A stretch of 59,484 nucleotides of DNA. It comes from Acidobacteriota bacterium. GTDB taxonomy: Bacteria; Acidobacteriota; UBA6911; JACQSX01. The notes under the pieces are model-generated. The model was not told where the DNA came from and searched no databases. It saw nothing but the letters and a program-made list of their open reading frames with translations. This document shows, piece by piece, positions 138-59,417 of this stretch; position 1 is the first letter of the stretch, and every line of letters begins with the position of its first letter. The position numbers and the translations under genes are program-made. Location of the stretch: contig DASXQR010000069.1 of the NCBI GenBank assembly GCA_036507075.1, positions 1 to 59,484 of the forward strand. Reading direction: 5' to 3'.

Positions 138-354
138 GACGGCCACGTGCACGTCAATGTCCACGGAACATGTCCAAGCTGCTTGAGAGATTTAGAGCTT
201 AATCATTTTGGTCAACATCGACAGGATGGGTTCGAGGAGTTGCCTCCTGGCATGCCTCACCGTGCTGCAGGCAAACTTGCGAGTTCTTCTTCGTTAGCGT
301 GGACGTGGCCGTTGACGTCTGTCGTTGACGTGCACGTGCACGTCCTCGGCTTTT
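138..354. repeat. Fold-back element, family A (6-nt CACGTN-type arms)
   Basis: CACGTGCACGTCAA (144-157) is the exact reverse complement of TTGACGTGCACGTG (325-338); right end CGGCTTT is shared with other family A copies. Confidence 0.8.
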
Positions 355-495
355 TTCTTTGGTTGCGGCCTACGGCCGGGCTGTGCCTCTGTGGTGAAGT
401 CCTTGCCCGACGGGTAGACCACTACCCCCTTCTCTAAACCATTGACAAATTCACTCAAACTAAACATCATTTGCAATTTTGCGGACAGTGCAAAC

Positions 496-2040
496 ATGCT
501 GATTGCGCAAAGCCTTCATCGCAGTGGTGCAGGGCACCCGGACAAGATCGCGCTGATGTATCGCGATCAGCGCATCTCCTATTCCCTTCTGCTGAACACG
601 ACACGCTCCTACGCGGGACTGTTTCAGTCACTGGGCATTGGTCGCGGAGATGTTGTCGCCATTTGCTTTGAAAATTCGCCGGAGTTCGTCTACGCCTATT
701 ACGCCCTCTCCTGGCTTGGCGCCACGGTACTTCCGGTCAACCTGTTACTGACGCCAAAGGAAATCGCATACATTCTGGGCGATTGTCAGGCTCGCGCTGT
801 CGTTACACGTACCGAGTACTGGGCAAAGTTTGCCGCGGCGGCCGCCGGCGGAGCGCTCAAGGTTGAAAAGGGTTTTCTGGTGGGCGGCAACCCCGAGCCG
901 TCGACGATTGAAACAATAAACATCTCCGAGAGGCTCGCTTATCAGCAGCCGGTCTCCTCCGACCCGGAACCTGTGCCGCAGGACTCAGCAGCGGTGTTAA
1001 TTTACACTTCAGGCACCACCGGCACCCCCAAGGGCGTGATGTTGAGCCATCACAACCTGATGTCGAACGCGGATGCTGTGGCGCGCGCCACGTCGGCGCT
1101 CGACGAAGACACTTTTTTTCTGCTCCTGCCTGTTTTCCACATTACGTCTCAGACAGTGTGCCTGCTGACCCCTATTTTGATCGGGGCCGCCATTGCCATT
1201 GTGTCGCGAATTGACAGAGCGGAGATGGCCCACGCATTCAAGGAATTTTTGCCCACGGTTTTCATCGCTGTTCCGTCCATCTACAATATGCTGGCCGCCG
1301 CGCCGGCGCCTCCTCCGGACAAGAACCCCGTTCGGCTCTACGTTTCCGGCGGGGCTCCGCTGCCATCTGAGATTCAAAATCGTTTTGAGGCTGCCTACCA
1401 AAAGCCGATCTATGGCGGTTATGGCCTGACTGAGGCGTCGCCGGTCGTCTCATGGAACGTTCCCGGCGCAAACAAGCCGGTGAGCGTTGGAAAGCCTCTC
1501 CATGGAGTGCAGGTAAAAATCACCAACGACAAAATGGAGGACTTGCCGGCCGGCGAGATCGGAGAAATCTGTGTCAAAGGCGAGCTGGTAATGCTCGGTT
1601 ACTACAATCGACCCGAGGAAACATCGCAGACGATCATTGACGGATGGCTGCGCACCGGCGACATGGGCAAGATCGATACAGACGGTTATCTCTACGTCGT
1701 CGACCGGAAGAAAGAGATGCTGATTTATTCCGGTATTAATGTCTATCCGCGAGAAATTGAAGAACTGCTGCACACCATGCCTCTAATCTCCGAAGCCGCT
1801 GTGGTCGGCGTTCCCGATGCCGCGCGCGGCGAAATTCCGGTCGCCTTTGTAACGTCGAAAGCGGAAAAGCCGGTGACAGAAAGGCAAATCAAGGAGTTCT
1901 GCATCGCCAACCTGGCCCGCTACAAAGTCCCGCGTCGATTCTTTGTCATTGATGACTTTCCACGCACCGCCTCGGGAAAGATCAACAAGCTTCAGCTCAA
2001 GGCGGAAGCTGCGCATCGAATGAAGGAAGTCGCGCGGTAG
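496..2040 (+). CDS. Long-chain-fatty-acid--CoA ligase (AMP-binding family)
   Basis: YTSGTTGTPKG, GYGLTEASP, WLRTGDMG and RTASGKI motifs; in-frame ATG at 496 chosen as start. Confidence 0.9.
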   Translation: MLIAQSLHRSGAGHPDKIALMYRDQRISYSLLLNTTRSYAGLFQSLGIGRGDVVAICFENSPEFVYAYYALSWLGATVLPVNLLLTPKEIAYILGDCQARAVVTRTEYWAKFAAAAAGGALKVEKGFLVGGNPEPSTIETINISERLAYQQPVSSDPEPVPQDSAAVLIYTSGTTGTPKGVMLSHHNLMSNADAVARATSALDEDTFFLLLPVFHITSQTVCLLTPILIGAAIAIVSRIDRAEMAHAFKEFLPTVFIAVPSIYNMLAAAPAPPPDKNPVRLYVSGGAPLPSEIQNRFEAAYQKPIYGGYGLTEASPVVSWNVPGANKPVSVGKPLHGVQVKITNDKMEDLPAGEIGEICVKGELVMLGYYNRPEETSQTIIDGWLRTGDMGKIDTDGYLYVVDRKKEMLIYSGINVYPREIEELLHTMPLISEAAVVGVPDAARGEIPVAFVTSKAEKPVTERQIKEFCIANLARYKVPRRFFVIDDFPRTASGKINKLQLKAEAAHRMKEVAR

Positions 2041-2243
2041 TGTCAGTGGTCCGTTGTCAGTGGTCCGTTGTCAGTTGTCAGTTGCAATTTCAGAATTATC
2101 CGTCTTTCCGGTTATCTGCATTATTGTTTGGAAACTACCTGCCAAGCGCCCACTAGCAACAGCCACTGACAACTAAAAACGGACCACGGACAACTGACTA
2201 CTGACGACGGACTACTGACAACGGACCACTGACAACGGACCAC
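2041..2243. repeat. Fold-back element, family B (7-nt TTGTCAG/TGGTCCG arms)
   Basis: Left arm TGTCAGTGGTCCGTTGTCAGTGGTCCGTTGTCAG starts right after the TAG; right arm ...CTGACAACGGACCACTGACAACGGACCAC ends at 2243. Confidence 0.9.
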
Positions 2244-2262
2244 GCAGTATAATAATTAGTTT

Positions 2263-5640: not shown

Positions 5641-5755
5641 GAAAAGCCGACCACGTCCAGATGCACGAGCACGTCAACGACCACGGCTACGGCTACGTCG
5701 ACGTCGTTGACGTAATCGTGGATGTTGACGTGGTCGTGCACGTAGACGGCTTTTC
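5641..5755. repeat. Fold-back element, family A
   Basis: GAAAAGCCG...CACGT repeats facing ACGTG repeats...CGGCTTTTC. Confidence 0.85.
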
Positions 5756-5835
5756 TTTTGGCGGTTGCTTTTAGCTTCTTGTTGTTCTGGCTCGCGCCGG
5801 ACTGTCTTTGTGGCTTTTGCTGTTCAGAAACGACC

Positions 5836-6390
5836 TTGCTGACCTCACTTCGCGAACCTAATTATTATCTCCTCGGTTTCATGGGAGCCGGCAAATCCAC
5901 CGTCGGTCCCCTGCTGGCCGGAAGGCTGGACACGCAGTTCTACGATCTGGATCAGCTCATCGAGGAGACCGAAAAATCCACGATTCGCCAAATCTTCGAA
6001 ACTAGAGGCGAGGCTTTCTTTCGTAAAAAGGAAACGGAACTGCTGTTGCCTCTAACACGATTGCGCAGCGCGGTGATCGCGCTCGGCGGGGGAACCTTTG
6101 TACAAGAGATCAACCGCGAGTTGATCCGCTCTACCGGAATCTCCATCTGGATTAACGTGCCTTTGGAGCGCATCCAGAAGCGCATCCAGAACCCGTTGTC
6201 CAGACCGCTTTTTCGAACGCCGCAGGAAATGGAAGCCCTGTTTCGGCAGCGTGAGGCCTTTTACGCCATGGCGGATCTGGAAGTTCGAGTGGGGGAAGAG
6301 CCTGTCGAAGATGTTGCTGACAAGATTCTGTCGTCGATCACAAATTTTCACGAATTAACACAAATTCCACGAAGTAATGAAGATTCGTGA
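5836..6390 (+). CDS. aroK: Shikimate kinase
   Basis: LLGFMGAGKSTVG, DLD, GEAFFRKKE, ALGGG, RPL; in-frame TTG at 5836 is my start estimate. Confidence 0.93.
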   Translation: MLTSLREPNYYLLGFMGAGKSTVGPLLAGRLDTQFYDLDQLIEETEKSTIRQIFETRGEAFFRKKETELLLPLTRLRSAVIALGGGTFVQEINRELIRSTGISIWINVPLERIQKRIQNPLSRPLFRTPQEMEALFRQREAFYAMADLEVRVGEEPVEDVADKILSSITNFHELTQIPRSNEDS

Positions 6391-6421
6391 AATTCGTGTT
6401 AATTCGTGAGAATTCGTGATC
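6336..6421. repeat. Fold-back element, family C (9-nt CACGAATTN arms), overlapping the aroK 3' end
   Basis: GATCACAAATTTTCACGAATTAACAC pairs with GTGTTAATTCGTGAGAATTCGTGATC; lies between convergent genes. Confidence 0.9.
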
Positions 6422-6423
6422 CA

Positions 6424-7920
6424 CTACGGCAAAAGGAGGACCTGGCCTGCGAAGACCTGTCCTGAGGCGAGGCGCTTGTTTCGCTTCTTTAAGGCGGCGG
6501 GTGACACTTTGAGTTTTTTCGCAATTTGGGTCAATGTTTCGCCTTTACGAACACGGTACTGCTTCGACCCGGCTTTCACGGACTTCGACTTCCTGGAATC
6601 ATGCCGCAGGCTGGCCGTATGGATCGAGCGGCGGCTCCCTTTTCGCACCGAGCGCGCTGCCTTTACAGGCGCAACGCGACTCATCCAGTTTTGTTCTTCA
6701 CGACTCAGGGTGGAGAGCGCTTCGGCGATCTCGCCTGCAGGAACTTTCAACATGTAACCGGAAGGAAGACGCTGATAACCGCGATGGATGTCGATTGAAA
6801 TCGCAGGATTGTAGGCTCGCAAAGTTCCTTCAGAAACGCGATTTAATTCCGCGAGTTGGCTGCTTCGATTTCCTGACTTGACCTTCAACTCCTCGAATTT
6901 CAGAGGCTTCGCCATCTCAGCCAAAGGGAAATACTTGCGACAGTTCTTGGCTACTTCCAGCGCCGCCAGGAATTCAGAATAGAAGTTTTTGGAGGCGAAA
7001 CCGAACGCCTTTCCGTCGTGCTTCTCCAAAATCGCCAGGAAGTCGCCCTGCTGCGCCTCGTTGGCCCGCATCATTCCGTTGGTGCCGTAATTGTAGGCGG
7101 TAATCGCCTGTGGCCAGCTTCTCAGCAGGTTGTAGTTCTTCCACAGAACCTCGGCTGCGGCCTGGGTGGCGCGCAACGGATCCCGCCGCTCATCCATCAC
7201 CGAGTTGATCGTGAGCAGTCCCCGCGATGAACGCCTCATGAATTGCCAGATGCCTGCAGCACCCACCTTCGAATAGCTGGCGTAATTGAAGGAAGACTCC
7301 ACATGCGGCAGGTAAGCCAACTCTTCAGGCAACCCTTTATCGCGAAATACCTTCACTATGTACGGCAGATATAGACCGGAGCGGACCACTCCCTGCTCGA
7401 AACGGTCTTTGACGCCCCGCTGCTCGCGTACCCGGTCCGGGGCATCGCGAAAGTAACCGGCATCGAGAACTTGCCCCGCCTTGACGAGCGCCTCATGCAC
7501 ATGTTTATGAGTGGAGCTGAAACCGGCTGCTTCCAGGCCGAACTTGCTGAAGTCCTCCAGCGCGTTCTGGACCTTCAGCACCTCTGCTTCGATTTCGGAT
7601 TCTTGGTCCCGCCATTCGCCCGGCGATACGTCGGGAAACTTGTCGAATTTCAGTACTTTGTAGATGATGGCAAGATTTTCGCGGTCGTGAATGATGACCT
7701 GGCGACGGTCGTACCTGGAATAAACCGTTCGCCAGAAATCGATCCGGGTCTGCAATCCCTTTTGCGGAAAGAACTCCTCCACCGACGAGAGCTCGAAATC
7801 GGAGGAAGCTGCCGTCTTGGGAGAGTAACCGGCCTTTACGGACAACTTTTCGCTGTTGTCGAGTGCCGGTGATAACAGAAATAAAAGGAGAACTGCCAGA
7901 AGCGTGGCAAAGCTTCGCAT
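6424..7920 (-). CDS. Lytic murein transglycosylase (MltD-like) with C-terminal LysM
   Basis: LPHVESSF, AAGIWQFM, DERRDP, AITAYNYG, YRVRKGETLTQIA; signal peptide from ATG at 7920. Confidence 0.9.
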   Translation of the reverse strand: MRSFATLLAVLLLFLLSPALDNSEKLSVKAGYSPKTAASSDFELSSVEEFFPQKGLQTRIDFWRTVYSRYDRRQVIIHDRENLAIIYKVLKFDKFPDVSPGEWRDQESEIEAEVLKVQNALEDFSKFGLEAAGFSSTHKHVHEALVKAGQVLDAGYFRDAPDRVREQRGVKDRFEQGVVRSGLYLPYIVKVFRDKGLPEELAYLPHVESSFNYASYSKVGAAGIWQFMRRSSRGLLTINSVMDERRDPLRATQAAAEVLWKNYNLLRSWPQAITAYNYGTNGMMRANEAQQGDFLAILEKHDGKAFGFASKNFYSEFLAALEVAKNCRKYFPLAEMAKPLKFEELKVKSGNRSSQLAELNRVSEGTLRAYNPAISIDIHRGYQRLPSGYMLKVPAGEIAEALSTLSREEQNWMSRVAPVKAARSVRKGSRRSIHTASLRHDSRKSKSVKAGSKQYRVRKGETLTQIAKKLKVSPAALKKRNKRLASGQVFAGQVLLLP

Positions 7921-11456: not shown

Positions 11457-11525
11457 AAAAGCCGATCACGTCAACGTCTACGTTTAAGGTCTACGTCCAC
11501 GTGCACGCCAATGTCCACCAGCACC
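11457..11525. repeat. Solo left arm of family A
   Basis: AAAAGCCGATCACGTCAACGTCTACG...CACGTGCACG with no matching right arm. Confidence 0.7.
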
Positions 11526-13344: not shown

Positions 13345-13599
13345 GTTATGAAGGGGAAGGAAGGGTTATGAAGGGGGATGGAGGGAAAGGACAAGGGATG
13401 ATAAGTGGAACAAAACGAAATAAGCCATCAGCCGAACCGCGCGCGTAAGCAAGCGGACCCTCGATGTAGCAGTTCTAATTAATTTGGTGCTTAGCGTTTG
13501 CTGCGTGGGTCCGCTTGTTTACGCGCGCGGTTCGGTTGGTAACCGCTTCCCTTCATCCCCCTTCATCCCCCTTCATAACCCTTCCTCCCCTTCCATAAC
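13345..13599. repeat. Fold-back element, family D (10-nt TGAAGGGGGA-type arms), enclosing a REP pair
   Basis: GGAAGGGTTATGAAGGGGGATG pairs with CATCCCCCTTCATAACCCTTCC. Confidence 0.88.
13429..13538. repeat. Inverted REP-like pair (family R2) nested in family D
   Basis: CAGCCGAACCGCGCGCGTAAGCAAGCGGACCC / GGGTCCGCTTGTTTACGCGCGCGGTTCGGTTG; same motif at 59388. Confidence 0.85.
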
Positions 13600-13687
13600 C
13601 CCGGAGCCAGAGCATCGCAGAAACCTTGGTGCCTTGGTGGCTTTGTGGCAGAATTAACACTGGCGGTTCTCACCAGGAGACAATTCG

Positions 13688-14953: not shown

Positions 14954-14990
14954 GCACACTATCAAGCTGTAATAGGAGCGGTAGTACCGG

Positions 14991-15020
14991 CCATCAGCTT
15001 TCAGCCTTCAGCAATCAGCT
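14991..15020. repeat. 7-nt TCAGCNN tandem arm (family N) with degenerate partner
   Basis: ATCAGCTTTCAGCCTTCAGCAATCAGCT; weak GCTG-rich counterpart near 15044-15075. Confidence 0.55.
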
Positions 15021-15132
15021 TTTTCACACATTAACGGCTTTTTGCTGGCGACCGGCAGCTGAAGCCCTGTTGGTCCCGGCAAGCACAGTGCAGCCAAGGA
15101 ACTGCGGCCGTCAAGCCCCGGATCGCGCTGAA

Positions 15133-15956: not shown

Positions 15957-16222
15957 AAAGCCGTTCAAGTCAACGACACGTCTCACGTTCACGTTCACGA
16001 GCTCGTCAACGTCCACGTCAACCGGGCATGACCACGTCTACGATTGCGTCTACGATCTTGCCCAGTGCGGCGCAGGCTGCAGAGAATTGAAACTGATCAT
16101 TTTGTCGTAATCGTAGACCTGGGACGTGAACGTTGGCGTGCTCGTGAACGTAGGACGTCGAGGTTGACGTGATCGTGCTCGTGGTCGTTGGCGTTAGACG
16201 TGGTCATTGACATGGACGGCTT
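15957..16222. repeat. Fold-back element, family A
   Basis: AAAGCCGTTCAAGTCAACGACACG...CACGTTCACG facing CGTGAACG...TTGACATGGACGGCTT. Confidence 0.85.
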
Positions 16223-16432
16223 CCGCTGGCAGAAACTTTCGACACCACCAAACCATCATGGGATTCACTTTTTGCCCACTTCTTGATATAAAGTACTTTT
16301 GTATGCAGAGTTCTGAGCTTACGGCTCCTGCCCGGCCAATATTGCAGCAAATTCTAATTGCCCGATGACTCGTCAGTCTAAAGCCGGCAACTCGCAACGC
16401 GTGGAGTTGTGCTAGCATTAGGTCAGTTCGCG

Positions 16433-17227
16433 ATGGCCACGGAAGCGCTGAATTTTAAAGGGATTGTAAGGGAGGGGTCCCGGGAGGCGGACTTGCTCGC
16501 CCAGTTGGATCCACAGCGATTTCCCCGGCACATCGCCGTCATTATGGACGGGAATGGCCGCTGGGCTGCACAGCGACATCTTCCCCGTGTCTCCGGTCAC
16601 AAAGCAGGCATCGACTCGGTCCGTGAGATCGTTGAAACTTCAGCGCGGCTCGGAATTGACGCGCTCACCCTTTATGCCTTCTCCACGGAAAACTGGAAAC
16701 GTCCCAGGCCGGAGATCAACACTCTGATGGCTTTGTTGAAGGAATACCTTCAGCGCGAAGTGTCACGGCTGAACGAAAACAACATCCGGCTTTTGAGCAT
16801 GGGTCGCACCGAAGATCTGGCGGCCTCGGTGCAGGAAGAATTGCGGATTGCGGGGCGGCGAACGGCGCAGAATACCGGCATGAAATTGATTATTGCCCTC
16901 AACTACAGCGGACGGACGGAGTTAGTGGATGCCTTTCGAAAAATAATCCATCAACATCCGGGAATAAATCCCGCTTCGATAACCGAGTCGATGGTGGAAT
17001 CTCACCTCTACATGGAGGCCTTGCCCGAACCGGACCTGCTGATTCGAACCAGCGGCGAGATGCGAATCAGTAATTTTATGCTCTGGCAAATCGCTTATTC
17101 CGAAATCTACGTCACCGATACACTGTGGCCCGACTTTCGGCGCCGACATCTGTTCGAGGCAATCCTGGATTTTCAAAAGCGCGAACGCCGCTACGGCGGA
17201 ATTACCGTCAGTCCGACCTTCGAGTAG
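16433..17227 (+). CDS. uppS: Undecaprenyl diphosphate synthase (isoprenyl transferase)
   Basis: HIAVIMDGNGRWA, YAFSTENWKRP, DLLIRTSGEMRISNFMLWQ, ERRYGG. Confidence 0.97.
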   Translation: MATEALNFKGIVREGSREADLLAQLDPQRFPRHIAVIMDGNGRWAAQRHLPRVSGHKAGIDSVREIVETSARLGIDALTLYAFSTENWKRPRPEINTLMALLKEYLQREVSRLNENNIRLLSMGRTEDLAASVQEELRIAGRRTAQNTGMKLIIALNYSGRTELVDAFRKIIHQHPGINPASITESMVESHLYMEALPEPDLLIRTSGEMRISNFMLWQIAYSEIYVTDTLWPDFRRRHLFEAILDFQKRERRYGGITVSPTFE

Positions 17228-17424
17228 CAAACTTTTCACCAGAAAGGCTCAGATTTGCCACGAAGCCACGAAGGCACGAAGGACTGTTGTTCACTTTGAA
17301 GTGACACTTCTCATCACTCGATCGCAGGTATCGCAGAAGTGGGACGTCTAACTAAGTCATTGGGCTTTGTGTCTTCGTGCCTTCGTGGCAAACCCGTGCC
17401 TTTGTGGTGAAAAGTTTGCTACTC
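17222..17424. repeat. Outer fold-back (family I type) with perfect 20-bp terminal inverted repeat containing the uppS stop
   Basis: GAGTAGCAAACTTTTCACCA (17222-17241) / TGGTGAAAAGTTTGCTACTC (17405-17424). Confidence 0.9.
17252..17392 (-). mobile_element. MITE-like ~136-bp element, family E, copy 1 (inverted, more diverged)
   Basis: Reverse complement aligns over its whole length, including the non-repetitive core, with the copies at 18314 and 19718; mobility is inferred. Confidence 0.8.
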
Positions 17425-17434
17425 TGACCTCGGA

Positions 17435-18262
17435 ATGCTGACCCGGACCATTGCTGCTCTCAGTCTCGCACCGATAGTTCTCGGAATTCTGTTCTGGGCC
17501 CCGCCGTGGGCGTTCATCCTGTTCATACTTTTCGTTTCTGAGCTCACACTGTCCGAGTACCTGCGCCTGGTTCCCGGCCTGATCGATGCCGCCGCACGCG
17601 GCCTGCTTATGGTGCTTGCCGCCCTTCTGGTAGTCGGATCCGCCCTTGGGCCCGGACAGTTTGCGCCTCTAAGATCGCTGCTAATCCTGCTGGCAAGTTT
17701 TCTGGCTGTCACCATGTACACCGTGCTGACCAACTCGGACAATGCCCGCACTTTTTCCATCGTGGCCGGGTCTCTCTTCGGTCTGATCTATATCCCGTTA
17801 TCTCTGGCGCTGCTGATTCCAGTCCGTTTCGGCTATGATTTCCAGCTTACGGCCGGTGGCCAGACTTACGGTCGAAGCTCGATTCTCTTCTTGCTTCTGG
17901 TGACTTGGGCGGGCGATACGGGCGCGTACCTGGCAGGACGCAGTTTTGGGAAGCGGAAACTGGCCCCGAGAATCAGTCCCGGCAAGACAGTTGAAGGCGC
18001 GATCGCCGGGCTTATCTGCAGCGTGATTGTAGGAGTATTCTTTTTTTTTCTGGTCAGTCGCAGCCCTCTGTGGGTAGCCGGAGCCGCGCTGCTGAGCATT
18101 ATCGGACAATTCGGGGATTTGTTTGAATCGATGTTAAAGCGCGGGGCCGGTGTAAAGGATTCGTCGCAGTTGATCCCGGGACATGGAGGAATGCTGGATC
18201 GAGTCGACAGCCTTCTGCTTTGCTGCCCGGTACTTTTTGTGATGGAAGTGGGACGGTTTTGA
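17435..18262 (+). CDS. cdsA: Phosphatidate cytidylyltransferase
   Basis: DTGAY, ISPGKTVEG, GDLFESMLKR, VKDSSQLIPGHGGMLDRVDS. Confidence 0.97.
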   Translation: MLTRTIAALSLAPIVLGILFWAPPWAFILFILFVSELTLSEYLRLVPGLIDAAARGLLMVLAALLVVGSALGPGQFAPLRSLLILLASFLAVTMYTVLTNSDNARTFSIVAGSLFGLIYIPLSLALLIPVRFGYDFQLTAGGQTYGRSSILFLLLVTWAGDTGAYLAGRSFGKRKLAPRISPGKTVEGAIAGLICSVIVGVFFFFLVSRSPLWVAGAALLSIIGQFGDLFESMLKRGAGVKDSSQLIPGHGGMLDRVDSLLLCCPVLFVMEVGRF

Positions 18263-18270: not shown

Positions 18271-18506
18271 CGAAGTTTGAAATCGAAAGTGACACTCACA
18301 GACGTTGCCACACGGATTTGCCACGAAGGCACGAAGACACGAAGCTCAATGATTTAATTAGAAGTGCCACTTCTGCGACACCAGCGATTGAGTGATGAGA
18401 AGTGTCACTTCAAAGTGAAACAACAGTCCTTCGTGCCTTCGTGGCTTCGTGGCAAATCCTGGTCGCAGCTATCGGTGCCACTTTCGGCTTTCGACTTTCA
18501 GACTTG
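18271..18506. repeat. Outer fold-back, family F (7-nt GAAAGTC/GACTTTC arms)
   Basis: CGAAGTTTGAAATCGAAAGTGACAC / GTGCCACTTTCGGCTTTCGACTTTCAGACTT. Confidence 0.7.
18314..18459 (+). mobile_element. MITE-like element, family E, copy 2
   Basis: 8-nt CACGAAGG arms around a unique core; 18319-18454 differs from 19719-19854 at only 2 positions. Confidence 0.85.
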
Positions 18507-18508: not shown

Positions 18509-19693
18509 ATGAAGATGAATAAGAAAATCGCGATCCTCGGTTCGACCGGCTCAATCGGGCAAAGCACGCTGGATGTGGTGCGGCAGTCGCGGGGCAGATT
18601 CGAAGTCGTCGCCCTTGTCGGCGGTACAAATACTGAGGCCCTGTGTGACCAGATACGCGAATTTGCGCCTCGCATCGCCAGCGTTGTCGACAGCCGGCAC
18701 GCAGATGTGCTTCACAGGCAATTGACAAATCGAGGGATCGCAGCGCCACAGATCCTTTGTGGCGACGAAGGAGCCATTGCCGCCGCCACGCAGCAAGATG
18801 TGGAACTAGTGGTGGGCGCGATCAGCGGCGCGGCCGGCTTAATCCCCACATATCATGCCATCGAGCAGGGCAAACGGCTGGCTCTCGCCAACAAGGAAAC
18901 ACTGGTGATGGCCGGAGATTTGATCATGCCTCTGGCGCGCAAAAATGGCTGCTCCATCCTTCCTGTCGACAGCGAACACAATGCGCTGCACCAATGTCTC
19001 CAGGCAGTGCAACCCGATCAAGTCGACGAGCTTTTGCTTACCGCCAGCGGTGGGCCCTTCTTAAATCTGCCGCTGCACTGCATGGCCACCGTGTCGGTGC
19101 GCGAGGCCCTTCGCCATCCAACATGGCGCATGGGAAAGAAGATCACGATCGATTCGGCCACGCTCATGAACAAGGGGCTTGAAATCATTGAGGCACACCA
19201 TCTTTTCAATTTTCCACCCGATAAAATCCGGGTGCTGATTCATCCAAAGTCGGTCATTCACTCCCTGGTGAGAACAACCGACGGTTCCCTGATCGCGCAG
19301 ATGGGTATTACCGACATGCGCCTTCCAATTCTTTACGCGCTGAATTATCCCGAGCGGCTTCCATCGCCTTTCCCGGCCCTGGATCTCACCGCGGTGGGGC
19401 CCCTGGAATTCTTCAGCCCAGACCTCGCCAGATTTCCATGCTTGAAACTGGCTTATGAAGCCTTGCGAACGGGCGGAACACTGCCCACGGTCATGAATGC
19501 CGCAAATGAAGTGGCAGTATCGCAATTCCTCGGCGAGGAGATACCTTTTTCGGCGATTCCCGTCATCATCGAGCATGCCATGTCCGAACATAAAGCCGAA
19601 GCTGTGCGGGATCTCGATCAGATTCTGCAGATCGACCGTGAAGCGCGCACCCGAGCTCAACGAATCATTAAAGGCATGCTCCGTAGTCCGTAG
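18509..19693 (+). CDS. dxr: 1-deoxy-D-xylulose-5-phosphate reductoisomerase
   Basis: ILGSTGSIG, LANKE, PVDSEH, TASGGPF, HPTWRMGKKITIDSATLMNKGLE; start 18509 or 18515. Confidence 0.98.
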   Translation: MKMNKKIAILGSTGSIGQSTLDVVRQSRGRFEVVALVGGTNTEALCDQIREFAPRIASVVDSRHADVLHRQLTNRGIAAPQILCGDEGAIAAATQQDVELVVGAISGAAGLIPTYHAIEQGKRLALANKETLVMAGDLIMPLARKNGCSILPVDSEHNALHQCLQAVQPDQVDELLLTASGGPFLNLPLHCMATVSVREALRHPTWRMGKKITIDSATLMNKGLEIIEAHHLFNFPPDKIRVLIHPKSVIHSLVRTTDGSLIAQMGITDMRLPILYALNYPERLPSPFPALDLTAVGPLEFFSPDLARFPCLKLAYEALRTGGTLPTVMNAANEVAVSQFLGEEIPFSAIPVIIEHAMSEHKAEAVRDLDQILQIDREARTRAQRIIKGMLRSP

Positions 19694-19924
19694 TCCGTGG
19701 TCCGTAGAAAGTCCGAAATGCCACGAAGGCACGAAGACACGAAGCTCAATGATTTAATTAGAAGAGCCACTTCTGCGACACCAGCGATTGAGTCATGAGA
19801 AGTGTCACTTCAAAGTGAAACAACAGTCCTTCGTGCCTTCGTGGCTTCGTGGCATCTTCGGGCTTTCGACTTTCAGACTTTCAACAGACGACGAACCATT
19901 GACAACGGACCACGGACCAACGAC
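19681..19924. repeat. Outer fold-back, family B, enclosing family F and family E layers; contains the dxr stop
   Basis: CCGTAGTCCGTAGTCCGTGGTCCGT / ACGGACCACGGACCAACG; inner GAAAGTCCGAA / TTCGGGCTTTC. Confidence 0.8.
19718..19855 (+). mobile_element. MITE-like element, family E, copy 3
   Basis: Near-identical direct repeat of copy 2, exactly 1400 bp downstream. Confidence 0.85.
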
Positions 19925-19978
19925 TGGGTTATAATCAGCCCAGGGCACCTGTCGGCCTAAAACTAGAGGCGTTTAGTC

Positions 19979-23530: not shown

Positions 23531-23790
23531 CGAGTTCCGGGTTCCGGGTTCCGAGTTGCCAGCGCGGATTATTCGTAAATCTTCACCGCCAAGAACGCTA
23601 AGAGCGCTGAGAGAAGCGCCAAGGACGGGGGCTGAAACTTGAAGCATGAAGGCCATCAACGCTTTTTTCCGTCTGCGTAGTGTCTTCATGCTTCAAGTTT
23701 CAGCCCCCGTCCTTGGCGCTCTCCTGGCGGTCTTGGCGGTCTTCGCGGTTAAGCTTTTGCGAATAATCCAGGCTGGCAACTCGAAACTCG
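23531..23790. repeat. Composite ~260-bp fold-back (family G outer, family H inner, perfect 37-bp core inverted repeat)
   Basis: 23615-23651 is the exact reverse complement of 23684-23720; outer CGAGTTGCCAGC..GGATTATTCG / CGAATAATCC..GCTGGCAACTCG. Confidence 0.93.
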
Positions 23791-31371: not shown

Positions 31372-31812
31372 ATGAGAGCAGTGATACAGCGCGTCTCGCG
31401 CGCCAAGTGCAGTGTGAACGGAGCGGTCACCGGAGAGATCGGGCTCGGGTTTGTCGTACTGCTGGGGGTGGGTCGCGACGACAGCGATGCTGATGTGGAA
31501 TTTCTCGCCAACAAAATTATCAACCTGCGTGTGTTTGAGGATCTCGCGGGGAAAATGAATCTCAGCTTGAAAGACGCCGGGGGAAGCCTGCTTCTGATTT
31601 CCCAGTTCACCCTCTATGGGGATGCGCGTAAGGGAAACCGCCCGTCGTTTATCGACGCCGCTCCTGCCGAAGTTGCCGAGCGCTACTACGCCAAAATGGC
31701 CAGCCGCCTCGCCGCGGAGGCCCCCGTTCAAACCGGGATTTTTCAAGCCATGATGGACATCGAACTGGTAAATACAGGCCCTGTGACGATCCTGTTGGAC
31801 AGCAAGAGTTGA
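31372..31812 (+). CDS. dtd: D-aminoacyl-tRNA deacylase
   Basis: MRAVIQRV, SQFTL, KGNRPSF, NTGPVT. Confidence 0.97.
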   Translation: MRAVIQRVSRAKCSVNGAVTGEIGLGFVVLLGVGRDDSDADVEFLANKIINLRVFEDLAGKMNLSLKDAGGSLLLISQFTLYGDARKGNRPSFIDAAPAEVAERYYAKMASRLAAEAPVQTGIFQAMMDIELVNTGPVTILLDSKS

Positions 31813-31813
31813 G

Positions 31814-31895
31814 CACGAATTACACGAATTTCACGAATTTCACGAAGTTATTAATTAAAGATTCGTGAAATTCGTGTAATTCGTGAAATTCGTGA
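31814..31895. repeat. Fold-back element, family C, filling the gap between convergent genes
   Basis: Four CACGAATT-type units facing four ATTCGTG units around an AT-rich loop. Confidence 0.92.
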
Positions 31896-33077
31896 TCACA
31901 AGATGCACACCAACTCGCGTTGCACCGGCTGGGTGGTGACGGTCGGACCGTGATCGCGATCCATGTAAACATTGATCTCGGTGCGCACCCCGAATTCGGG
32001 AAGATATATTCCCGGCTCGATCGAAAAGCAAACCCCCGGAATAATCTCTCTTTCATCCCGGGTTTCAAGGTTGTCCATGTTTACACCGTTGCCGTGGTCC
32101 TTCTCCCCGATTGAGTGCCCGGTTCGATGGATAAAGTACTCGGCCAGGCCCGCGTCGGCGATCACATTGCGCACTACGTCATCCACTTCCCACCCATGAG
32201 TCTTTTCTTTCCGGGCCCAGCGGCGCTCGAGAAACTCGACACCCGCGTCGCGAGCGCGTGCATCCAAATCAAAGATCTGTTTCTGCCGTGCTCCCGGCGC
32301 GGCATCCAGAACGCCCATCCAGGTGATGTCTGCGAATACTGCTCCCCGCTCCGATTCCTTGCCCCATAGATCTATCAGCAAAATATCACCGTGCTTTCCG
32401 ACCTTCGAGTTTTCCCGTGACGGAGAGAAATGTGGATTACTTGCGTTCTCATTGAAGGCCACAATCGGCGGGTGATCGAAAACAAGCTCATTCTCCGCGA
32501 AAAGCCTGACCATCTCCTGCTGGATGGAAAACTCATCAACCTTCGCCTCCCAGAACCGTCGGGCCACCCAGGCAAAGGTCTGCTCCACGATGCGGTGAAG
32601 CTTTTGCGCAGACCTGCGGTGCATCTCCAGTTGCGCCGGGGACCAGACCGCCTGGAACTTTTGCACCAGATCGGCGGAAGTCACCACGTTACCTCCGCAT
32701 TTCCGCACCAGGTCCAGGATCCCTCCATCGACGCGCGACACGTAAGGAATTGAGCTGTCCGGAGAATACTGCATCGCCACAGTGGGCGCCGACTGCAGCA
32801 GGGTGCGGAGTTGCTCGTGCAGCTCGCGCCATGCCGAATATTCCATGGTTTCGCCCGGTAAAACGGCAAGCGCTTCTCTTTCCACGCGATTTACCAGCTT
32901 GACCGGTTGTCCTGACGCAGGAATCAGATAAAACCATCGCCGTGAATAGAGCCGGTCTTTGGGTAACTCGAGCACGTCAATTGCGATGGGATCAACATCA
33001 TGGAAACCATAAAAAAGCCAGCCATTGATTCCCGCAGCCGCAACCTCAGATTGGATTTTGGAAATATCGAGTGGCAT
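31896..33077 (-). CDS. M24 family metallopeptidase (Xaa-Pro peptidase-like)
   Basis: ADITW, HRTGHSIG, SIEPGIY, GVRTE; ATG at 33077 with GGGAGG RBS. Confidence 0.92.
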   Translation of the reverse strand: MPLDISKIQSEVAAAGINGWLFYGFHDVDPIAIDVLELPKDRLYSRRWFYLIPASGQPVKLVNRVEREALAVLPGETMEYSAWRELHEQLRTLLQSAPTVAMQYSPDSSIPYVSRVDGGILDLVRKCGGNVVTSADLVQKFQAVWSPAQLEMHRRSAQKLHRIVEQTFAWVARRFWEAKVDEFSIQQEMVRLFAENELVFDHPPIVAFNENASNPHFSPSRENSKVGKHGDILLIDLWGKESERGAVFADITWMGVLDAAPGARQKQIFDLDARARDAGVEFLERRWARKEKTHGWEVDDVVRNVIADAGLAEYFIHRTGHSIGEKDHGNGVNMDNLETRDEREIIPGVCFSIEPGIYLPEFGVRTEINVYMDRDHGPTVTTQPVQRELVCIL

Positions 33078-33110: not shown

Positions 33111-33266
33111 TTCCACCACAAAGACACGAAGAACACAAAGTTAGACGCCGGGCAGGCAGGGGCCGGTCAGCTTCTGAAAGTGAATCGTGACGGCAAGTTT
33201 CTGAAGCTGACCGGCCCCTGCCTGCCCGGCGTCTCGCTTCGTGTCCTTTGTGTCTTTGTGGTGGAA
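33111..33266. repeat. Fold-back element, family I (CACCACAAAGACAC arms) with perfect 32-bp inner inverted repeat
   Basis: 33143-33174 AGACGCCGGGCAGGCAGGGGCCGGTCAGCTTC is the exact reverse complement of 33203-33234. Confidence 0.93.
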
Positions 33267-37400: not shown

Positions 37401-37741
37401 ATCGCCTGCAGCTCCTTTTTGTCCATCGGATAATTGGCTTTCTGCCAGGCTTGGAATCCGCCGTGCAGTGGATGTGCCCGGAAGCCTTTCTCCTGGAGGA
37501 TTTGCGCCACACGGGCGCTGGAATGCTCGTTTGGTCAGGTGCAGTAGGTGATGATCGTGCGCCCTTTGGGGATCTCACTCAGGTGGGCCTCTACTTCATC
37601 GGCCGGAACGCGAATCGCGCCGGGTAACTTTTCATCCGATTCCTCCCAATCCTTGGGACTCCTTGAATCCACAAAAACCAACATTTCTCCACGATCCATT
37701 CGCTGTTTGATCTCATCCGCTGTAACTCGCGTGACTTCCAT
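37397..37741 (-). CDS. Rhodanese-domain protein with in-frame UGA, probable selenoprotein (114 aa, Sec69)
   Basis: Reads IITYCT-UGA-PNEHSSARVAQILQEKGFRAHPLHGGFQAWQKANYP to TAA at 37397; the part after UGA completes the rhodanese fold. Confidence 0.85.
37504..37518 (-). promoter_or_regulatory. Putative bacterial SECIS hairpin
   Basis: GCGCC-CGUGU-GGCGC starting 16 nt 3' of the UGA, with GU near the start of the loop. Confidence 0.7.
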
Positions 37742-37787
37742 AGAGCACCTCGCTTCCTTCAATGTATCATCGACTAAAAGCTGCAGC

Positions 37788-37985
37788 ACGCGAAGCACGG
37801 AGCCACGTCCCGAAAGGGCGTGGCAGGACCAAAGAAGTCGGCTGGCACGGATCGCGCCGCCTCTTCACGATGCCGTCCAATCGGAAAAAGTTTCCTTGCC
37901 GACATCTGGCAAATCTTCCAGGTCAGCGAGCCGACTCACATGGATTCCGCCACGCCCTTGCGGGATGTGGCTCTGTGCTTCGCGT
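37788..37985. repeat. Inverted REP-like pair (family R3), copy 1
   Basis: ACGCGAAGCACGGAGCCACGTCCCGAAAGGGCGTGGC / GCCACGCCCTTGCGGGATGTGGCTCTGTGCTTCGCGT. Confidence 0.88.
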
Positions 37986-38172
37986 CTTGCTCCGATAGCC
38001 CATCGAAGGCCACATGATCGCCAAATCGGCAGGACAACCGGCCTGGATGCCTCAAATTTCTGGTTCTGCGTGACTTTCGGTACCGTTTTGAGTCAAAATT
38101 CTGGAACACGGGACCTCCTCTATCGTAGTAAATAGAGCAGGCGAAAAGCTTGTTAAAGACCGGACAGGGCGG

Positions 38173-40798: not shown

Positions 40799-40897
40799 AA
40801 ATGCGGATTTCGGAATGCGGAATGCGGAATATCTAGCTTAAGTCTTCGAAAGCAGAACCGAGATCGCTTCCTATTCCGCATTCCGAATTCCGCATTT
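40799..40897. repeat. Fold-back element, family J (7-nt ATGCGGA arms), copy 1
   Basis: AATGCGGATTTCGGAATGCGGAAT / ATTCCGCATTCCGAATTCCGCATT. Confidence 0.9.
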
Positions 40898-43815: not shown

Positions 43816-43863
43816 GCTTGGTGCCTTGGTGGTTCATTTTTTTGACCACCAAGACACCAAGCT
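43816..43863. repeat. Short hairpin, family K (8-nt CTTGGTGC/GCACCAAG)
   Basis: AGCTTGGTGCCTTGGTGGT..ACCACCAAGACACCAAGCT. Confidence 0.85.
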
Positions 43864-43918
43864 TCCCCAATTTACATAATGCAAGTTCGAAAACCAGTAC
43901 TTTTGACTTTCCTCGGAC

Positions 43919-44888: not shown

Positions 44889-45000
44889 TTGGAATTCCGA
44901 ATGCGGAATGCGGAATGCGGATTATACACAACTTACGTCTGTTAAGCCGAGTCAGAAATCGCTCGCCATTCCGCATTCCACATTCCGAAATCCGAATTTG
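44889..45000. repeat. Fold-back element, family J, copy 2
   Basis: GAATGCGGAATGCGGAATGCGGA / ATTCCGCATTCCACATTCCGAAATCCG. Confidence 0.88.
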
Positions 45001-46452: not shown

Positions 46453-46497
46453 TTGGTGCCTTGGTGGTTAACAGTTTTTGCGCACCAAGACACCAAG
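46453..46497. repeat. Short hairpin, family K, between convergent genes
   Basis: TTGGTGCCTTGGTG..CACCAAGACACCAA. Confidence 0.8.
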
Positions 46498-46511
46498 TCA
46501 CAATATCAGTA

Positions 46512-47268: not shown

Positions 47269-47372
47269 AAAAGGGGACACAAAAAGGGGACAGTCCCCAA
47301 TTTCAAAAAGGGGACAGTCCCCAATTAATTCACTTCCGACCGGTGGAATTAATTGGGGTCTGTCCCCAAATT
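47269..47372. repeat. GGGGACAGTCCCC palindrome cluster (family L) overlapping the coaE 3' end
   Basis: Two AAAAAGGGGACAGTCCCCAATT units plus inverted AATTAATTGGGGTCTGTCCCC. Confidence 0.85.
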
Positions 47373-48063: not shown

Positions 48064-48181
48064 CAAATGTGGATTTCGGAATGCGGAATGCCGAATATGT
48101 CCGGTTTGAGTCTTCCGGCATGAGAAGAAATCACTCCCATATTCTGCCATTCCGCATTCCGCATTCCGAAATCCGCATTTG
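48064..48181. repeat. Fold-back element, family J, copy 3
   Basis: CAAATGTGGATTTCGGAATGCGGAATG / CATTCCGCATTCCGAAATCCGCATTTG. Confidence 0.9.
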
Positions 48182-50233: not shown

Positions 50234-50294
50234 TTGGTGCCTTGGTGCCTTGGTGCCTTGGTGGTCGAAAAGATTTAACCACCAAGGCACCAAG
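50234..50294. repeat. Short hairpin, family K, between convergent genes
   Basis: Three TTGGTGCC units then TTGGTGGT..ACCACCAAGGCACCAAG. Confidence 0.88.
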
Positions 50295-50319
50295 CCAAAT
50301 TCCCATCAGGGTGCCTGCA

Positions 50320-52239: not shown

Positions 52240-52409
52240 GAAAAGCTTGAACCGCGAAGACCACCAAGAACGCCAAGAATAATTGATTTAGCCATCCCAT
52301 TAAACAGAATGCAAATGAGAATGAGGCTTTCGACTGCTCCTCTCAGGAGCACAGACACTGCTGTCCGTTAAGCTTGTTTTCTTGGCGATCTTGGCGGTTC
52401 AAGTTTTTC
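52240..52409. repeat. Fold-back element, family H (9-nt CGCCAAGAA arms)
   Basis: GAAAAGCTTGAACCGCGAAGACCACCAAGAA / TTCTTGGCGATCTTGGCGGTTCAAGTTTTTC. Confidence 0.88.
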
Positions 52410-52417
52410 CTGATGGT

Positions 52418-54369: not shown

Positions 54370-54405
54370 TGGTCAGAGCAGGGTAATGTTAACAGAAAGT
54401 TCAGG

Positions 54406-54458
54406 GGCTTGGCGTCTTGGTGGCTTAAAAGACTAGTGAACCACAAAGGCACCAAGCC
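54406..54458. repeat. Short hairpin, family K, between divergent genes
   Basis: GGCTTGGCGTCTTGGTGG..CCACAAAGGCACCAAGCC. Confidence 0.8.
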
Positions 54459-54509
54459 AGGCGGTTACCAGGTGCGTCCAGATTGGACTTTTGCAAGGGC
54501 AGTATTAAG

Positions 54510-56834: not shown

Positions 56835-56868
56835 AACTAGAGACGGCGGGGGCTTCACAACCCCGGGC

Positions 56869-57082
56869 ACGCAAAGCACAGAGCCACGTCCCGCAAGGGC
56901 GTGGCGTGCAACCATGCCAGTCGGCTATGACCCGGCGACTGCCCATTTCTTATCGCCCAGCGAGCCCGCAACGGTCTGCCAGACGGTCATAACGGCCCCG
57001 GCACCAGATTCACGTGGGACGGCAAGCCGACTGGCATTTATTTCCGCCACGCCCTTGCGGGACGTGGCTCTGTGCTTCGCAT
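56869..57082. repeat. Inverted REP-like pair (family R3), copy 2
   Basis: AAGCACAGAGCCACGTCCCGCAAGGGCGTGGCG / CGCCACGCCCTTGCGGGACGTGGCTCTGTGCTT; inner ATGCCAGTCGGCT / AGCCGACTGGCAT. Confidence 0.9.
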
Positions 57083-57096
57083 GCCGGCGACGTTTG

Positions 57097-57714
57097 TCAC
57101 TTCTTCGGATTGACGCTCCAATTGAGCGCGCGCAGTTCGGCAGGTCTTTGAAATCGAAAAAGCCGTTTGAAAATTCGGATCAACAGGTAGATTACCAGCC
57201 ACGCAAAAGCGGCCGTGAAGAGCAGCAGCGTCAGCAAGATGACGGGATGGTGCAGAAACAGCCAGTAGGCAAAGGTGATCAGAACGTCCTCGGCAATACT
57301 GACGAACCAGTTGGTGAAAGGTTCCGGCGTTCCGTTCAGTGCCAGCCGTACGGAAGCCTTGGCTCCGTGAGTTCCAAACGCTATCAGTCCTGCAGTCAAG
57401 CCGACGAGAAACAATGACTGCCGTGACATCCCCGAGGCTGCTCCCAAAGCCAGCAGGATTCCGGCCGGAATCCGGATGAAGGTATGGATCGCATCCCAGA
57501 AGCTGTCAACATACGGGATCTTGTCGGCAACAAATTCAATCAGAAACAGGAGCGCGGCGATGAGCAGGGAGATATCGCTGGACAGAAAGTCCAGCTCCGG
57601 CGGCAAGGACATCCACTGCATTCTTCCCACAATTCCAGCAAGAAGAACAGTCAGGTAAAGATCAATCCCGGCGCCCCAACTTAATAATAAGGCCCACAAT
57701 AAGTCTGTGTTCAT
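57097..57714 (-). CDS. DUF4126 family membrane protein
   Basis: EFVADKIPYVDSFWDAIHTFIRIPAG, PEPFTNWFVSIAED. Confidence 0.92.
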   Translation of the reverse strand: MNTDLLWALLLSWGAGIDLYLTVLLAGIVGRMQWMSLPPELDFLSSDISLLIAALLFLIEFVADKIPYVDSFWDAIHTFIRIPAGILLALGAASGMSRQSLFLVGLTAGLIAFGTHGAKASVRLALNGTPEPFTNWFVSIAEDVLITFAYWLFLHHPVILLTLLLFTAAFAWLVIYLLIRIFKRLFRFQRPAELRALNWSVNPKK

Positions 57715-57925
57715 TGTCAGTTGTCAGTTGTCAGTTGTCCGTGGTCCGTGGTCAGTTGTGTCAGTTGTCAGGTGGTTGCAGTTATCGATGCTTAGTCGGT
57801 GGTCGCTTGTCGGCAGTGCTTTGTTGAGATGCTTCAATCTGCCTTCCAAATGCTCGTCCAGATCCCACCGACAACATACCACCTGAGTACTGACAACGGA
57901 CCACGGACCACTGACAACGGACAAA
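57714..57925. repeat. Fold-back element, family B, filling the whole asnS-DUF4126 spacer
   Basis: Three TTGTCAG units then TTGTCCGTGGTCCGTGGTCAG / CTGACAACGGACCACGGACCACTGACAACGGACAA. Confidence 0.92.
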
Positions 57926-59218
57926 CTACGGATAAATCTTATACAACATGCGCGGAAACGGAATCGTTTCGCGCACGTGTTCGATGCCGCAAATCCAGGC
58001 CACCGCCCGCTCGATTCCCATCCCGAATCCTCCGTGAGGCGTGGTACCGAACTTGCGGAGGTCGATATACCACTGAAAAGCTTCCGCGGGCAGATGGTGT
58101 TCGGCAATTCGTTGCCGCAGCAAAGCCTCCTCGTGAATTCGCTGCCCGCCGCCAATGATCTCGCCGTAGCCCTCCGGCGCAAGCACGTCAACACACAAAG
58201 CCACTTCGGGACGCTGCGGATCGGGTTGCATGTAGAATGCTTTCACCGCCGACGGATAGCGATGCACCATGATCGGCTTTTCATGCTCCTCTGAAAGCAG
58301 CGTTTCGTCGGCCGCGCCGAAATCGCCGCCCCATTCGATGGCAGACCCTTTTTGCTTCAGAAATTTTACGGCTTCGTCATAACTTATCCTGGGAAAAGGC
58401 CCGACCGCTTTCTCCAACCTGGTCGTATCGCGCTCAATTACTTTGAGTTCCTCGCGTCTTGTCTCCAGTACGCGACCCACAATGTAGACCAGCATATCCT
58501 CGGCAAGCTGCATGATATCCGGCAGCTCGGCAAAGCAGACCTCCGGCTCGACCATCCAGAACTCCATCAGGTGCCGCCGCGTCTTCGATTTCTCAGCTCG
58601 AAAAGTGGGACCAAAGCAATAAGTCTTTCCAAAGGCCGCCGCGGTTGCTTCGTTGTAAAGCTGGCCACTCTGGGTTAGATATGCCGTCTGATCAAAGTAC
58701 TGAGTCTCAAACAGTGTGGTTGTCCCTTCACACGCGTTGGGCGTGAAGATGGGCGTATCGACCAGCGTGAAGTCTCGGGAGTCAAAGAAGTCACGACAGG
58801 CTTTGATGATTTCGTGACGGATTTTCAGAATCGCGTGCTGGCGCGAAGAGCGAAGCCAGAGATGCCGATGCTCCATCAGGAAAGCAGTGCCGTGTTCTTT
58901 AGGGGTGATGGGGTATTCCTGAGCAACCTGGATTACCTGTAAATCCATCACATCGAGTTCATAGCCTCCGGGAGATCGGTCCTCTTTTTTCACTTTCCCT
59001 GTGATCGACAGGGAAGACTCCTGGGTCACCGAGTCAGTCAAGTTGAACATTTCCTCCGGCACATTTCCTCTGAACACAACGCACTGCACCAGCCCCGTGC
59101 CGTCACGCACGATCAAGAAGCGCAGCTTTCCGCTCGAGCGCTTGTTGTAAAGCCAACCGCGCACAATGACGGTCTCGCCCACATGCTCCTGGAGCCGGTT
59201 TACATAGATTTGAGACAT
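57926..59218 (-). CDS. asnS: Asparagine--tRNA ligase
   Basis: [56 protein letters not shown]. Confidence 0.97.
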
Positions 59219-59253
59219 TCACTTCCCTTCGCGGGCTTGGAACATGTAAAGAA

Positions 59254-59417
59254 TTCACCACAGGGACACAGAGAGTACAGGGAGAGGCAGAAGGCAGGAC
59301 GCAGGAGACAGAAGGCAGGACGCAGGAGGCAGAAGGCAGGACGCAGAAGGCAGCAGGCAGAAGGCAGCAGGCGGCGGATGGGCACGCCAGCCGAACCGCG
59401 CGCGTCAGCAAGCGGAC
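59254..59417. repeat. Three stacked left arms: family I, 7-nt GGCAGAA/CGCAGGA array (family M), REP R2
   Basis: TTCACCACAGGGACACAGAG (59254), array 59285-59372, CAGCCGAACCGCGCGCGTCAGCAAGCGGAC (59388-59417); no partner arms inside the window. Confidence 0.8.

Follow-up and report, generated by a model that had tools for sequence, protein, structure and literature searches.

The window analysed here is the whole 59,484-nt stretch of contig DASXQR010000069.1 (C69 of G000, the 6.1-Mb genome of an Acidobacteriota bacterium), whose 45 main open reading frames (ORFs) are ordinary genes and whose spacers hold fold-back elements, most of them built from inverted arms of short tandem repeats. A first-pass annotation made from the letters alone had described such elements in most sizeable spacers, and Tandem Repeats Finder together with an inverted-repeat scan recovered the same arm motifs at the same places. 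An inverted pair scoring at least 13 occurs in 21 of the 30 spacers that are 60 nt or longer, versus none of 150 shuffled spacers, and 24 of 25 folded stretches reach z ≤ -3.5 against dinucleotide shuffles, a value that is optimistic in stretches hand-chosen around arms. None of the 45 scanned ORFs encodes a transposase, in agreement with the annotation, and an Rfam search of the window gave zero matches. These results confirm that the fold-back system is real; the interpretation attached to it is partly supported, as set out below.

Most of the individually listed elements proved genuine. Those at 11457, 14991 and 59285 (spacer scores 6.5, 7.0 and 6.0) are tandem arms lacking a strong partner, the last of them at the contig end, and the hairpins at 46453 and 54406 fall slightly below the cut (11.5 and 10.5). 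Entries that had been separated at 18271/18314, 19681/19707/19718 and 23531/23585 are nested layers of single composites, and three non-tandem palindromes (13429-13538, 37783-37990 and 56866-57085) were absent from the earlier list. Independent Logan contigs from runs X1 and X2 terminate within elements, the behaviour expected of repeats; run X1 may derive from the sample of origin.

The system extends throughout G000, in which 1723 of 2728 tandem arms (period 5-12) are matched by an inverted partner no more than 2.5 kb away, compared with 201 for a random stretch, a control inflated by further repeat copies. The paired arms form 956 elements (167 kb, at least 2.7% of the genome; median 152 nt), a lower bound given that the strict detector recovers only 10 elements within the window, and rough clustering yields 18 families with at least five copies. 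Only 85 of the 956 midpoints lie within long ORFs, which cover 76% of the genome, and occupancy is 158/508 for convergent, 355/1312 for tandem and 83/485 for divergent spacers. Arm order is constant within each family (203:2, 109:1, 66:1, 64:0 and 46:0, with 100:23 in a lumped 8-mer family), so the elements are not chance pairings of microsatellites. The CACGAAG family comprises 48 full-length copies, 72-100% identical, with fixed ends and a common interior, that is, terminal inverted repeats in dispersed copies; its three window copies are mutually closest (92.6-100%, the remaining copies reaching at most 88%), and near-identical copies cluster locally. Arms mostly resembled their own partner more than the median of other copies, as under concerted evolution, a comparison that we did not count because detection demanded a good own partner.

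Comparison of orthologous spacers with 19 relatives, among them the same-family genomes G001, G002 and G003, revealed extensive turnover. The uppS and cdsA genes overlap in G002 and G003, lie 54 nt apart in G001 and are separated by 207 nt in G000, while the truA-uppS spacer measures 79-82 nt in G001 and G002, 541 nt in G000 and 590 nt in G003, where it is filled by three nested families other than those of G000; in G018 the uppS-cdsA spacer holds another 7-mer family again. The elements are insertions, and the same spacers have been filled independently in different lineages. The earlier proposal of genome-wide, non-autonomous elements therefore stands, with about 956 tandem-arm copies whose presence differs between relatives. 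Direct repeats at the element ends were no longer than in swapped controls in the five families compared, so that no target-site duplication was found, in line with the annotation's view that these are not miniature inverted-repeat transposable elements. Nesting within a second inverted repeat was seen for 19 of 72 CACGAAG copies (3 in controls) and 4 of 20 CACGTC copies (1 in controls).

The annotation had further suggested that small four-helix-bundle (4HB) and GxxExxY genes could be carried by such arms, and this suggestion was borne out. G000 contains seven PF05635 (4HB), six PF13366 (GxxExxY) and 12 Y1_Tnp loci; the 4HB and GxxExxY genes are bracketed by arm motifs found in the window, and the Y1 genes (RAYTs) are flanked by non-tandem palindromes rather than tandem arms. 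Among fetched loci, with the wrongly oriented L061 left out and short loci skipped, inverted tandem arms surround 4HB genes in 70 of 80 and 21 of 27 cases (88 of these 91 of period 7), and inverted flanks surround GxxExxY genes in 15 of 24, with tandem arms of period 8-10 detected in seven; no dprA or comM control locus has inverted arms (0/49). The cassettes examined lie between protein genes, not in rRNA genes, and many cargo genes are truncated or frameshifted.

Direct proof of the relationship between empty and gene-carrying forms lies within the window. Read on the minus strand, element 138-345 consists of an arm, a decayed copy of the promoter described below, the end of a 4HB gene and a second arm, and it aligns to the intact cassette G000:C37:4143-4481, the gene remnant matching its C-terminus and 3' arm. 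The decayed promoter coincides in position with 18-29-bit sites of the sister copies on C149, C167 and C192, which have retained it in stronger form, one of them with the promoter only, giving a decay series C37 > C167/C149/window 138 > C192. The deleted form recurs at 11 further near-full-length places (77-95% identity), so gene-less copies have spread in trans. We conclude that these gene-less elements derive from cassettes by internal deletion and that the deleted forms spread; a cassette origin for the elements in general is highly probable.

Among solved structures, the 4HB proteins match only 2GSC and 2RLD, both uncharacterised, and GxxExxY gave nothing significant. At G000:C57:18379-18768 a CACGTC-family 5' arm and an intact promoter precede an unrelated 130-aa ORF that is not a 4HB gene, an arrangement that suggests cargo swapping. 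The 5' arm is contained in the first codons of the gene in GxxExxY cassettes G000:C37:29125, C152:81056 and L238, and at L058 (G013) a 4HB gene has a complete hairpin on each side, the two copies in direct orientation, a layout like REPIN-gene-REPIN.

Upstream of the cargo genes we identified a bipartite motif, approximately TTCGCAGA-N15-GTTATGT preceded by an A/T run, with a spacing fixed at 23 nt in 19 of 19 training sites. At 23 bits it has 64 matches (63 distinct) in G000 and none in the shuffled genome. The 24 downstream proteins annotated with NCBIfam include DNA-uptake proteins (comEA, comEC, comF, comM, dprA and a ComGD-like pilin), recombination and repair proteins (recA, ssb, radC, recG, recQ, pcrA and an XPF nuclease), two RAYTs, an anti-sigma factor and eight without an NCBIfam match. 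From its established gene content we take this set to be a competence regulon, and a fixed-spacing bipartite promoter ahead of comEA, comEC, comF, dprA, comM, recA and ssb is the pattern of an alternative-sigma regulon. To keep the comparison with cassettes non-circular, the matrix was rebuilt from 12 host genes only; at 15 bits or more it finds 6 of 7 4HB, 5 of 6 GxxExxY and 10 of 12 Y1 loci (21 of 25 in total) versus 8 of 1458 random genes, and the cassette loci missing the promoter are truncated or at a contig end. From the shared promoter, the cassette genes and RAYTs are likely to be co-regulated with the competence genes. The annotation's statement that the elements are distinct from classical repetitive extragenic palindromes (REPs) was too strong, as the promoter is also that of the RAYT genes and nesting occurs between the elements and REP-type palindromes.

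Regulon members without a Pfam or NCBIfam match (L008:276-659 and 1698-2069, L005, L007, L010, L013 and L019) include two paralogous coiled-coil repeat proteins of about 125 aa and are candidate new competence genes. The CRP-S palindrome, considered as a possible source of the TCGCA half-site, was dropped when its TGCGA half was not seen.

Similar associations were found in other genomes. In G001 the pattern has 29 matches (control 0), and 20 fetched sites precede recA, comM, RAYTs, a 4HB gene and many promoter-keeping remnants, as named from their translations. The motif CGTAC-N16-GTAANAGT of G005 (13 matches, control 0) precedes comEA, comF, yraN, two 4HB genes and RAYT-like genes, and GTCAA-N12-GTGCGTTA of G013 (5 matches, control 0) precedes dprA, comEA, recA, a 4HB gene and one tandem-arm site; because host and cassette sites both went into these two patterns, they demonstrate that the motif is shared but not that it is enriched. 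In G190, an uncultured Ohtaekwangia sp. of the Bacteroidota (locus L197), the motif is an unrelated palindrome, TCMGG-N4-CCKKA (31 matches vs 8), located about 45-50 nt ahead of comEC, dprA, a comEA-like gene, radA and recA. A matrix made from these five genes finds 14 of 17 4HB and 7 of 7 GxxExxY genes at 10 bits, and 9 and 7 at 12 bits, where five neighbouring genes also score. Judged by such motif sharing, the promoter link recurs in three further lineages with different motifs, one of them in the Bacteroidota. In the same genome, two tyrosine integrase genes (L274 and L282) have the competence-type palindrome about 50 nt upstream.

None of the 35 sigma-like ORFs has a strong motif site upstream, and an autoregulated sigma factor is not supported. 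C17:71533-72093, part of an XRE-sigma-antisigma-CHAT cluster next to coaD, is the best candidate for the competence-promoter sigma: a 25-bit site lies at the sigma 3' end, ahead of the anti-sigma gene, and a divergent small ORF has a second site, an arrangement shared by G001 and G002. The best homologues of the candidate occur in genomes whose dprA or comEA carries the motif, and they are weak in the exceptions G005 and G008. The surrounding cluster (L015:8347-12968, G000:C17:68346-72967) encodes an XRE regulator, an extracytoplasmic function (ECF) sigma, a zinc-finger/TPR anti-sigma and a TPR-CHAT protease, adjoins recG, rsmD and coaD, and is kept in G001 and G002; its divergent ORF, with the competence promoter, is 79 aa long. 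Two small proteins with sigma region 4 only are encoded at G000:C218:3201-3446, which has a TTCGCAGA half-site upstream, and C104:6707-7081.

Long cytoplasmic single-stranded DNA (ssDNA) is present during competence, and RAYTs are ssDNA HUH enzymes. The best explanation, to which we assign a probability of roughly 55%, is that the elements are cassette-derived, competence-linked fold-back elements, and on our best reading they act on ssDNA in natural transformation. A cassette consists of a tandem-repeat arm, a competence promoter, one small gene and an inverted arm. Its gene encodes either a four-helix-bundle protein, with arms that are mostly 7-mers, or a GxxExxY PD-(D/E)XK protein, with arms of 8-10-mers, and RAYT cassettes with plain palindromic arms use the same promoter. 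An alternative, ECF-type sigma factor would turn on uptake, recombination and cassette genes jointly; in incoming ssDNA the arms would fold back regardless of the entering strand, and cassette proteins may recognise their own arm motif and then cut, protect or paste arm DNA. Elements would thereby reach new sites, in many cases inside the loop of a pre-existing hairpin, and RecA would carry them into empty orthologous sites, the fold-back drawing the conserved flanks together while the insert is looped out. What is selected would be structure plus cognate protein rather than one sequence, which would account for many unrelated motifs of one architecture among housekeeping genes. Expression and mobilisation of the cassettes are predicted from sequence, and spread on transforming ssDNA we rate as slightly more probable than its negation. 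A precedent is SsnA, encoded by a small gene between hairpins, which cuts hairpin ssDNA and alters transformation (PMC11893778).

Several observations weigh against this explanation. The nesting excess is confined to one or two of five families, the three others showing none, and no strain-level empty site was seen at element joints in contigs from four soil runs (X1-X4), contigs being prone to drop rare variants. Only 8 of 679 elements having loops keep the promoter, and no cargo gene with AATGCGG arms, those of the largest family, was found in G000. The exact G000 motif is restricted to the family, occurring in 2 of 151 genomes of the phylum, a shared motif was not seen by eye in G180-G184, G186-G188, G191 or family f6, and many 4HB cassettes, in Pyrinomonadaceae and others, leave no room for a promoter, having the order arm, ribosome-binding site, gene within operons. 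The background in G190 is high (10 of 43 neighbouring genes at 10 bits), the controls including dprA itself and divergent genes. The relative poverty of divergent spacers compared with convergent ones fits RNA-level effects too, and we know of no catalytic activity for 4HB proteins.

A more general version is tentative and less probable than not: a cross-phylum class in which the unrelated small proteins 4HB, GxxExxY nuclease, RAYT and GIY-YIG would each be wired to the host competence promoter and would exploit hairpins on incoming ssDNA for insertion, nesting and homing into empty sites. No single-domain GIY-YIG gene lies between cognate repeats in G000, and a GIY-YIG-like ORF stands downstream of the motif in G190. 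The sole single-domain GIY-YIG gene of G000 (C5:~950-1500, L311) directly follows a tRNA gene and has no competence promoter; it is followed by a repeat of the tRNA 3' half, the layout of a minimal tRNA-integrated element.

The strongest alternative, compatible with the best explanation but in itself rather unlikely, is a domesticated gate on gene flow, in which host proteins expressed in competence would cut or mark incoming DNA that bears hairpins, as SsnA does at NTS repeats, and would thereby restrict or shape recombination, the hairpins serving as self marks. It draws on the same promoter evidence, on the position of the elements among core genes and on the 5-fold higher transformation with NTS-bearing DNA that follows SsnA deletion (PMC11893778), yet many cargo genes are frameshifted or truncated, orthologous spacers are empty or occupied by other families, and some 18 families coexist, all of which resembles selfish-DNA turnover. 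Less likely still are RNA-level elements resembling 23S rRNA intervening sequences, with mRNA stems that RNase III would cut or that would stabilise transcripts or terminate transcription. Such a role would suit PF05635, which is named after those sequences, the promoterless cassettes within operons, and elements that lie close to stop codons and are scarce in divergent spacers, as in Xanthomonas (PMC4692102); against it, the elements are not conserved at orthologous sites, and the competence promoter and nesting are left unexplained. Mismatches on transcribed strands of tandem spacers, in crude alignments and with drift able to mask weak selection, showed no G-U bias (596 G-T vs 590 A-C), which is more in keeping with a hairpin that must form on whichever DNA strand is single than with a stem in RNA, so that selection for RNA structure, offered by the annotation as an alternative, is unsupported.

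It is improbable that the promoter belongs to a regulon for DNA damage or recombination rather than competence and that ssDNA gaps arising in repair or replication let the elements spread inside the chromosome. The presence of recA, recG, recQ, pcrA, ssb, radC and XPF in the regulon and the local clustering of near-identical copies would fit, but comEA, comEC, comF, comM, dprA and a minor pilin are also members, and in G000 the motif does not precede lexA, dinB, uvrA, uvrB or polA (the first four score 1.3 to -11.3 bits, recA 47), which is not the pattern of a LexA/SOS regulon; moreover, the G190 motif is unlike both published Bacteroidetes SOS boxes (PMC8565304). That the arms are paired sites bound by global regulators or nucleoid proteins, an idea put forward for Geobacter metallireducens from constant-length tandem units on opposite strands (PMC2700814), is very improbable in view of the cargo-gene remnants, the turnover between relatives and neighbours without functional grouping.

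What is new here is the tie of the cassettes and RAYTs to the competence regulon; the repeats themselves are partly known, and the hairpin-gene-hairpin plan is known from REP/RAYT and Ssn/NTS. The hallmark of REPs and REPINs is a palindrome of 20-40 bp with a GTAG/CGTC tag; unlike REP/RAYT, the arms here are tandem microsatellites and the cargo is 4HB or GxxExxY instead of an HUH transposase. ORF-bearing 23S rRNA intervening sequences and the bAvd of diversity-generating retroelements have a PF05635-family protein inside a long stem, whereas the cassettes lie outside rRNA, have their own competence promoter and are accompanied by hundreds of empty copies. RNase III removes the intervening sequences from the RNA, and diversity-generating retroelements have a neighbouring reverse transcriptase as well as template and variable repeats. 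The known competence regulons of ComX/SigX and SigH (Firmicutes) and CRP-S (Pasteurellaceae) cover comEA, comEC, comF, comM, dprA, recA, ssb, radC and pilin; the regulon here has a promoter of different, ECF-like sequence and includes hairpin cassettes.

The claim of a new repeat class holds only in part, as single families have been published in Geobacter, Xanthomonas and cyanobacteria. G. metallireducens has pairs of 3-5 tandem hepta- or octanucleotides on opposite strands, read as regulator sites (Aklujkar 2009, PMC2700814), with variable distance between arms, several classes and lineage specificity as here; unlike here, that account, in the passages concerned, gives no cargo genes or competence link, and its Table S4 might list cargo genes. 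Heptamer families also include GGGAATC in Xanthomonas (Rehm 2015, PMC4692102), TAACTGA in Beggiatoa (PMC4679880) and the cyanobacterial STRR hairpins (PMC2670836), which share with our elements intergenic arrays of about four units in inverted pairs, a G-rich arm downstream of stop codons and avoidance between divergent genes; these were studied singly as G-quadruplex or RNA regulators, and the passages concerned propose no cassette origin. REP/REPIN/BIME-RAYT systems have in common with the cassettes the hairpin-gene-hairpin unit, many gene-less copies, the absence of target duplication and an ssDNA logic, with competence mentioned only in passing in the text concerned (PMC3686654). In the SsnA/NTS system of Neisseria, too, cognate hairpin repeats flank a small gene for a single-domain protein that acts on ssDNA and affects natural transformation, but the fold is GIY-YIG and the repeat is 28 nt long and non-tandem (Chenal 2025, PMC11893778). 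In the open-access literature, supplements aside, we found no paper in which a competence promoter is tied to 4HB, GxxExxY or RAYT cassettes.

It has long been asked by what route REP-like and heptamer repeats spread and what function the RAYT, 4HB and GxxExxY proteins have, and a shared competence promoter would indicate when the cassette genes are expressed and which substrate to assay, incoming ssDNA. Such a promoter also indicates that uncultured soil Acidobacteriota and a lineage of Bacteroidota have a competence regulon, and it suggests that ssDNA enzymes with new sequence specificities exist. If the cross-phylum class were true, cyanobacterial STRRs, Xanthomonas and Geobacter heptamers and REPs would have one origin, and PF05635 and PF13366 a function.

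Table 1. Fold-back elements and related features of the window (coordinates in nt; C numbers denote other contigs of G000).
Feature	Coordinates	Strand	Remarks
CACGTC (6-mer) element, deletion derivative of 4HB cassette	138..345	-	
Final 15 codons and stop of 4HB (PF05635) gene	192..239	-	Aligned to intact cassette
Decayed competence-type promoter in element 138	252..292	-	6.7 bits, third best on window minus strand
7-mer GTCAGTT/GTCCGTT element	2041..2244		Begins directly at acyl-CoA ligase stop; such arms also bracket 4HB gene at C88:58558
CACGTC family, only arms present	5641..5757		
9-mer CACGAATTT element	6330..6427		Motif also flanks GxxExxY at C140
Lone CACGTC arm	11457..11520		Partner lost or weak
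10-mer GAAGGGTTAT/GAAGGGGGAT element	13345..13601		Encloses non-tandem REP-type palindrome 13429-13538, a type frequently surrounding CACGAAG elements genome-wide
Weak 7-mer TCAGCNN arm and partner	14985..15069		Below cut
CACGTC family element	15957..16232		truA-uppS spacer; empty in G001, G002
CACGAAG element (17252-17398) within second inverted layer	17209..17437		uppS-cdsA spacer
CACGAAG element, outer layer GAAAGTC	18271..18467		cdsA-dxr spacer
Three nested layers: GTCCGT 7-mer, GAAAGTC 7-mer, CACGAAG core	19680..19930		Core 98.5% identical to 18306 copy
Nested ACGGGTT/GAAACTC 7-mer, CGCCAAGAA 9-mer, perfect 37-bp inner palindrome	23531..23790		CGCCAAGAA arms also bracket GxxExxY at C83:12873
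9-mer CACGAATTT element	31810..31898		
CACAAAGA 8-mer arms, long perfect inner stem	33111..33266		
Non-tandem palindrome, kind of 56866	37783..37990		Within ORF 37548-38135
AATGCGG 7-mer element	40799..40897		Largest family, 205 copies
Short CTTGGTG..CACCAAG hairpin	43816..43870		3' arm precedes 5' arm, an order also found directly downstream of GxxExxY C37:29125
AATGCGG element	44889..44998		
Short CACCAAG hairpin	46453..46505		
AATGCGG element	48064..48181		
Short CACCAAG hairpin	50234..50297		
CGCCAAGAA 9-mer element	52240..52400		
Short CACCAAG hairpin	54406..54465		
Non-tandem REP-type palindrome	56866..57085		Arms 61 nt
7-mer GTCAGTT element	57714..57924		
GGCAGAA 5' arm (12.6 units), then REP-type arm	59284..59417		Partners beyond contig end; GGCAGAA arms bracket 4HB at C199:13270

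The REP-type arm at the end of the window occupies 59380-59417. At 47280-47326, the start of a DUF1003 gene, the window also contains a perfect two-copy 24-nt repeat and a GGGGACAGTCCCC palindrome.

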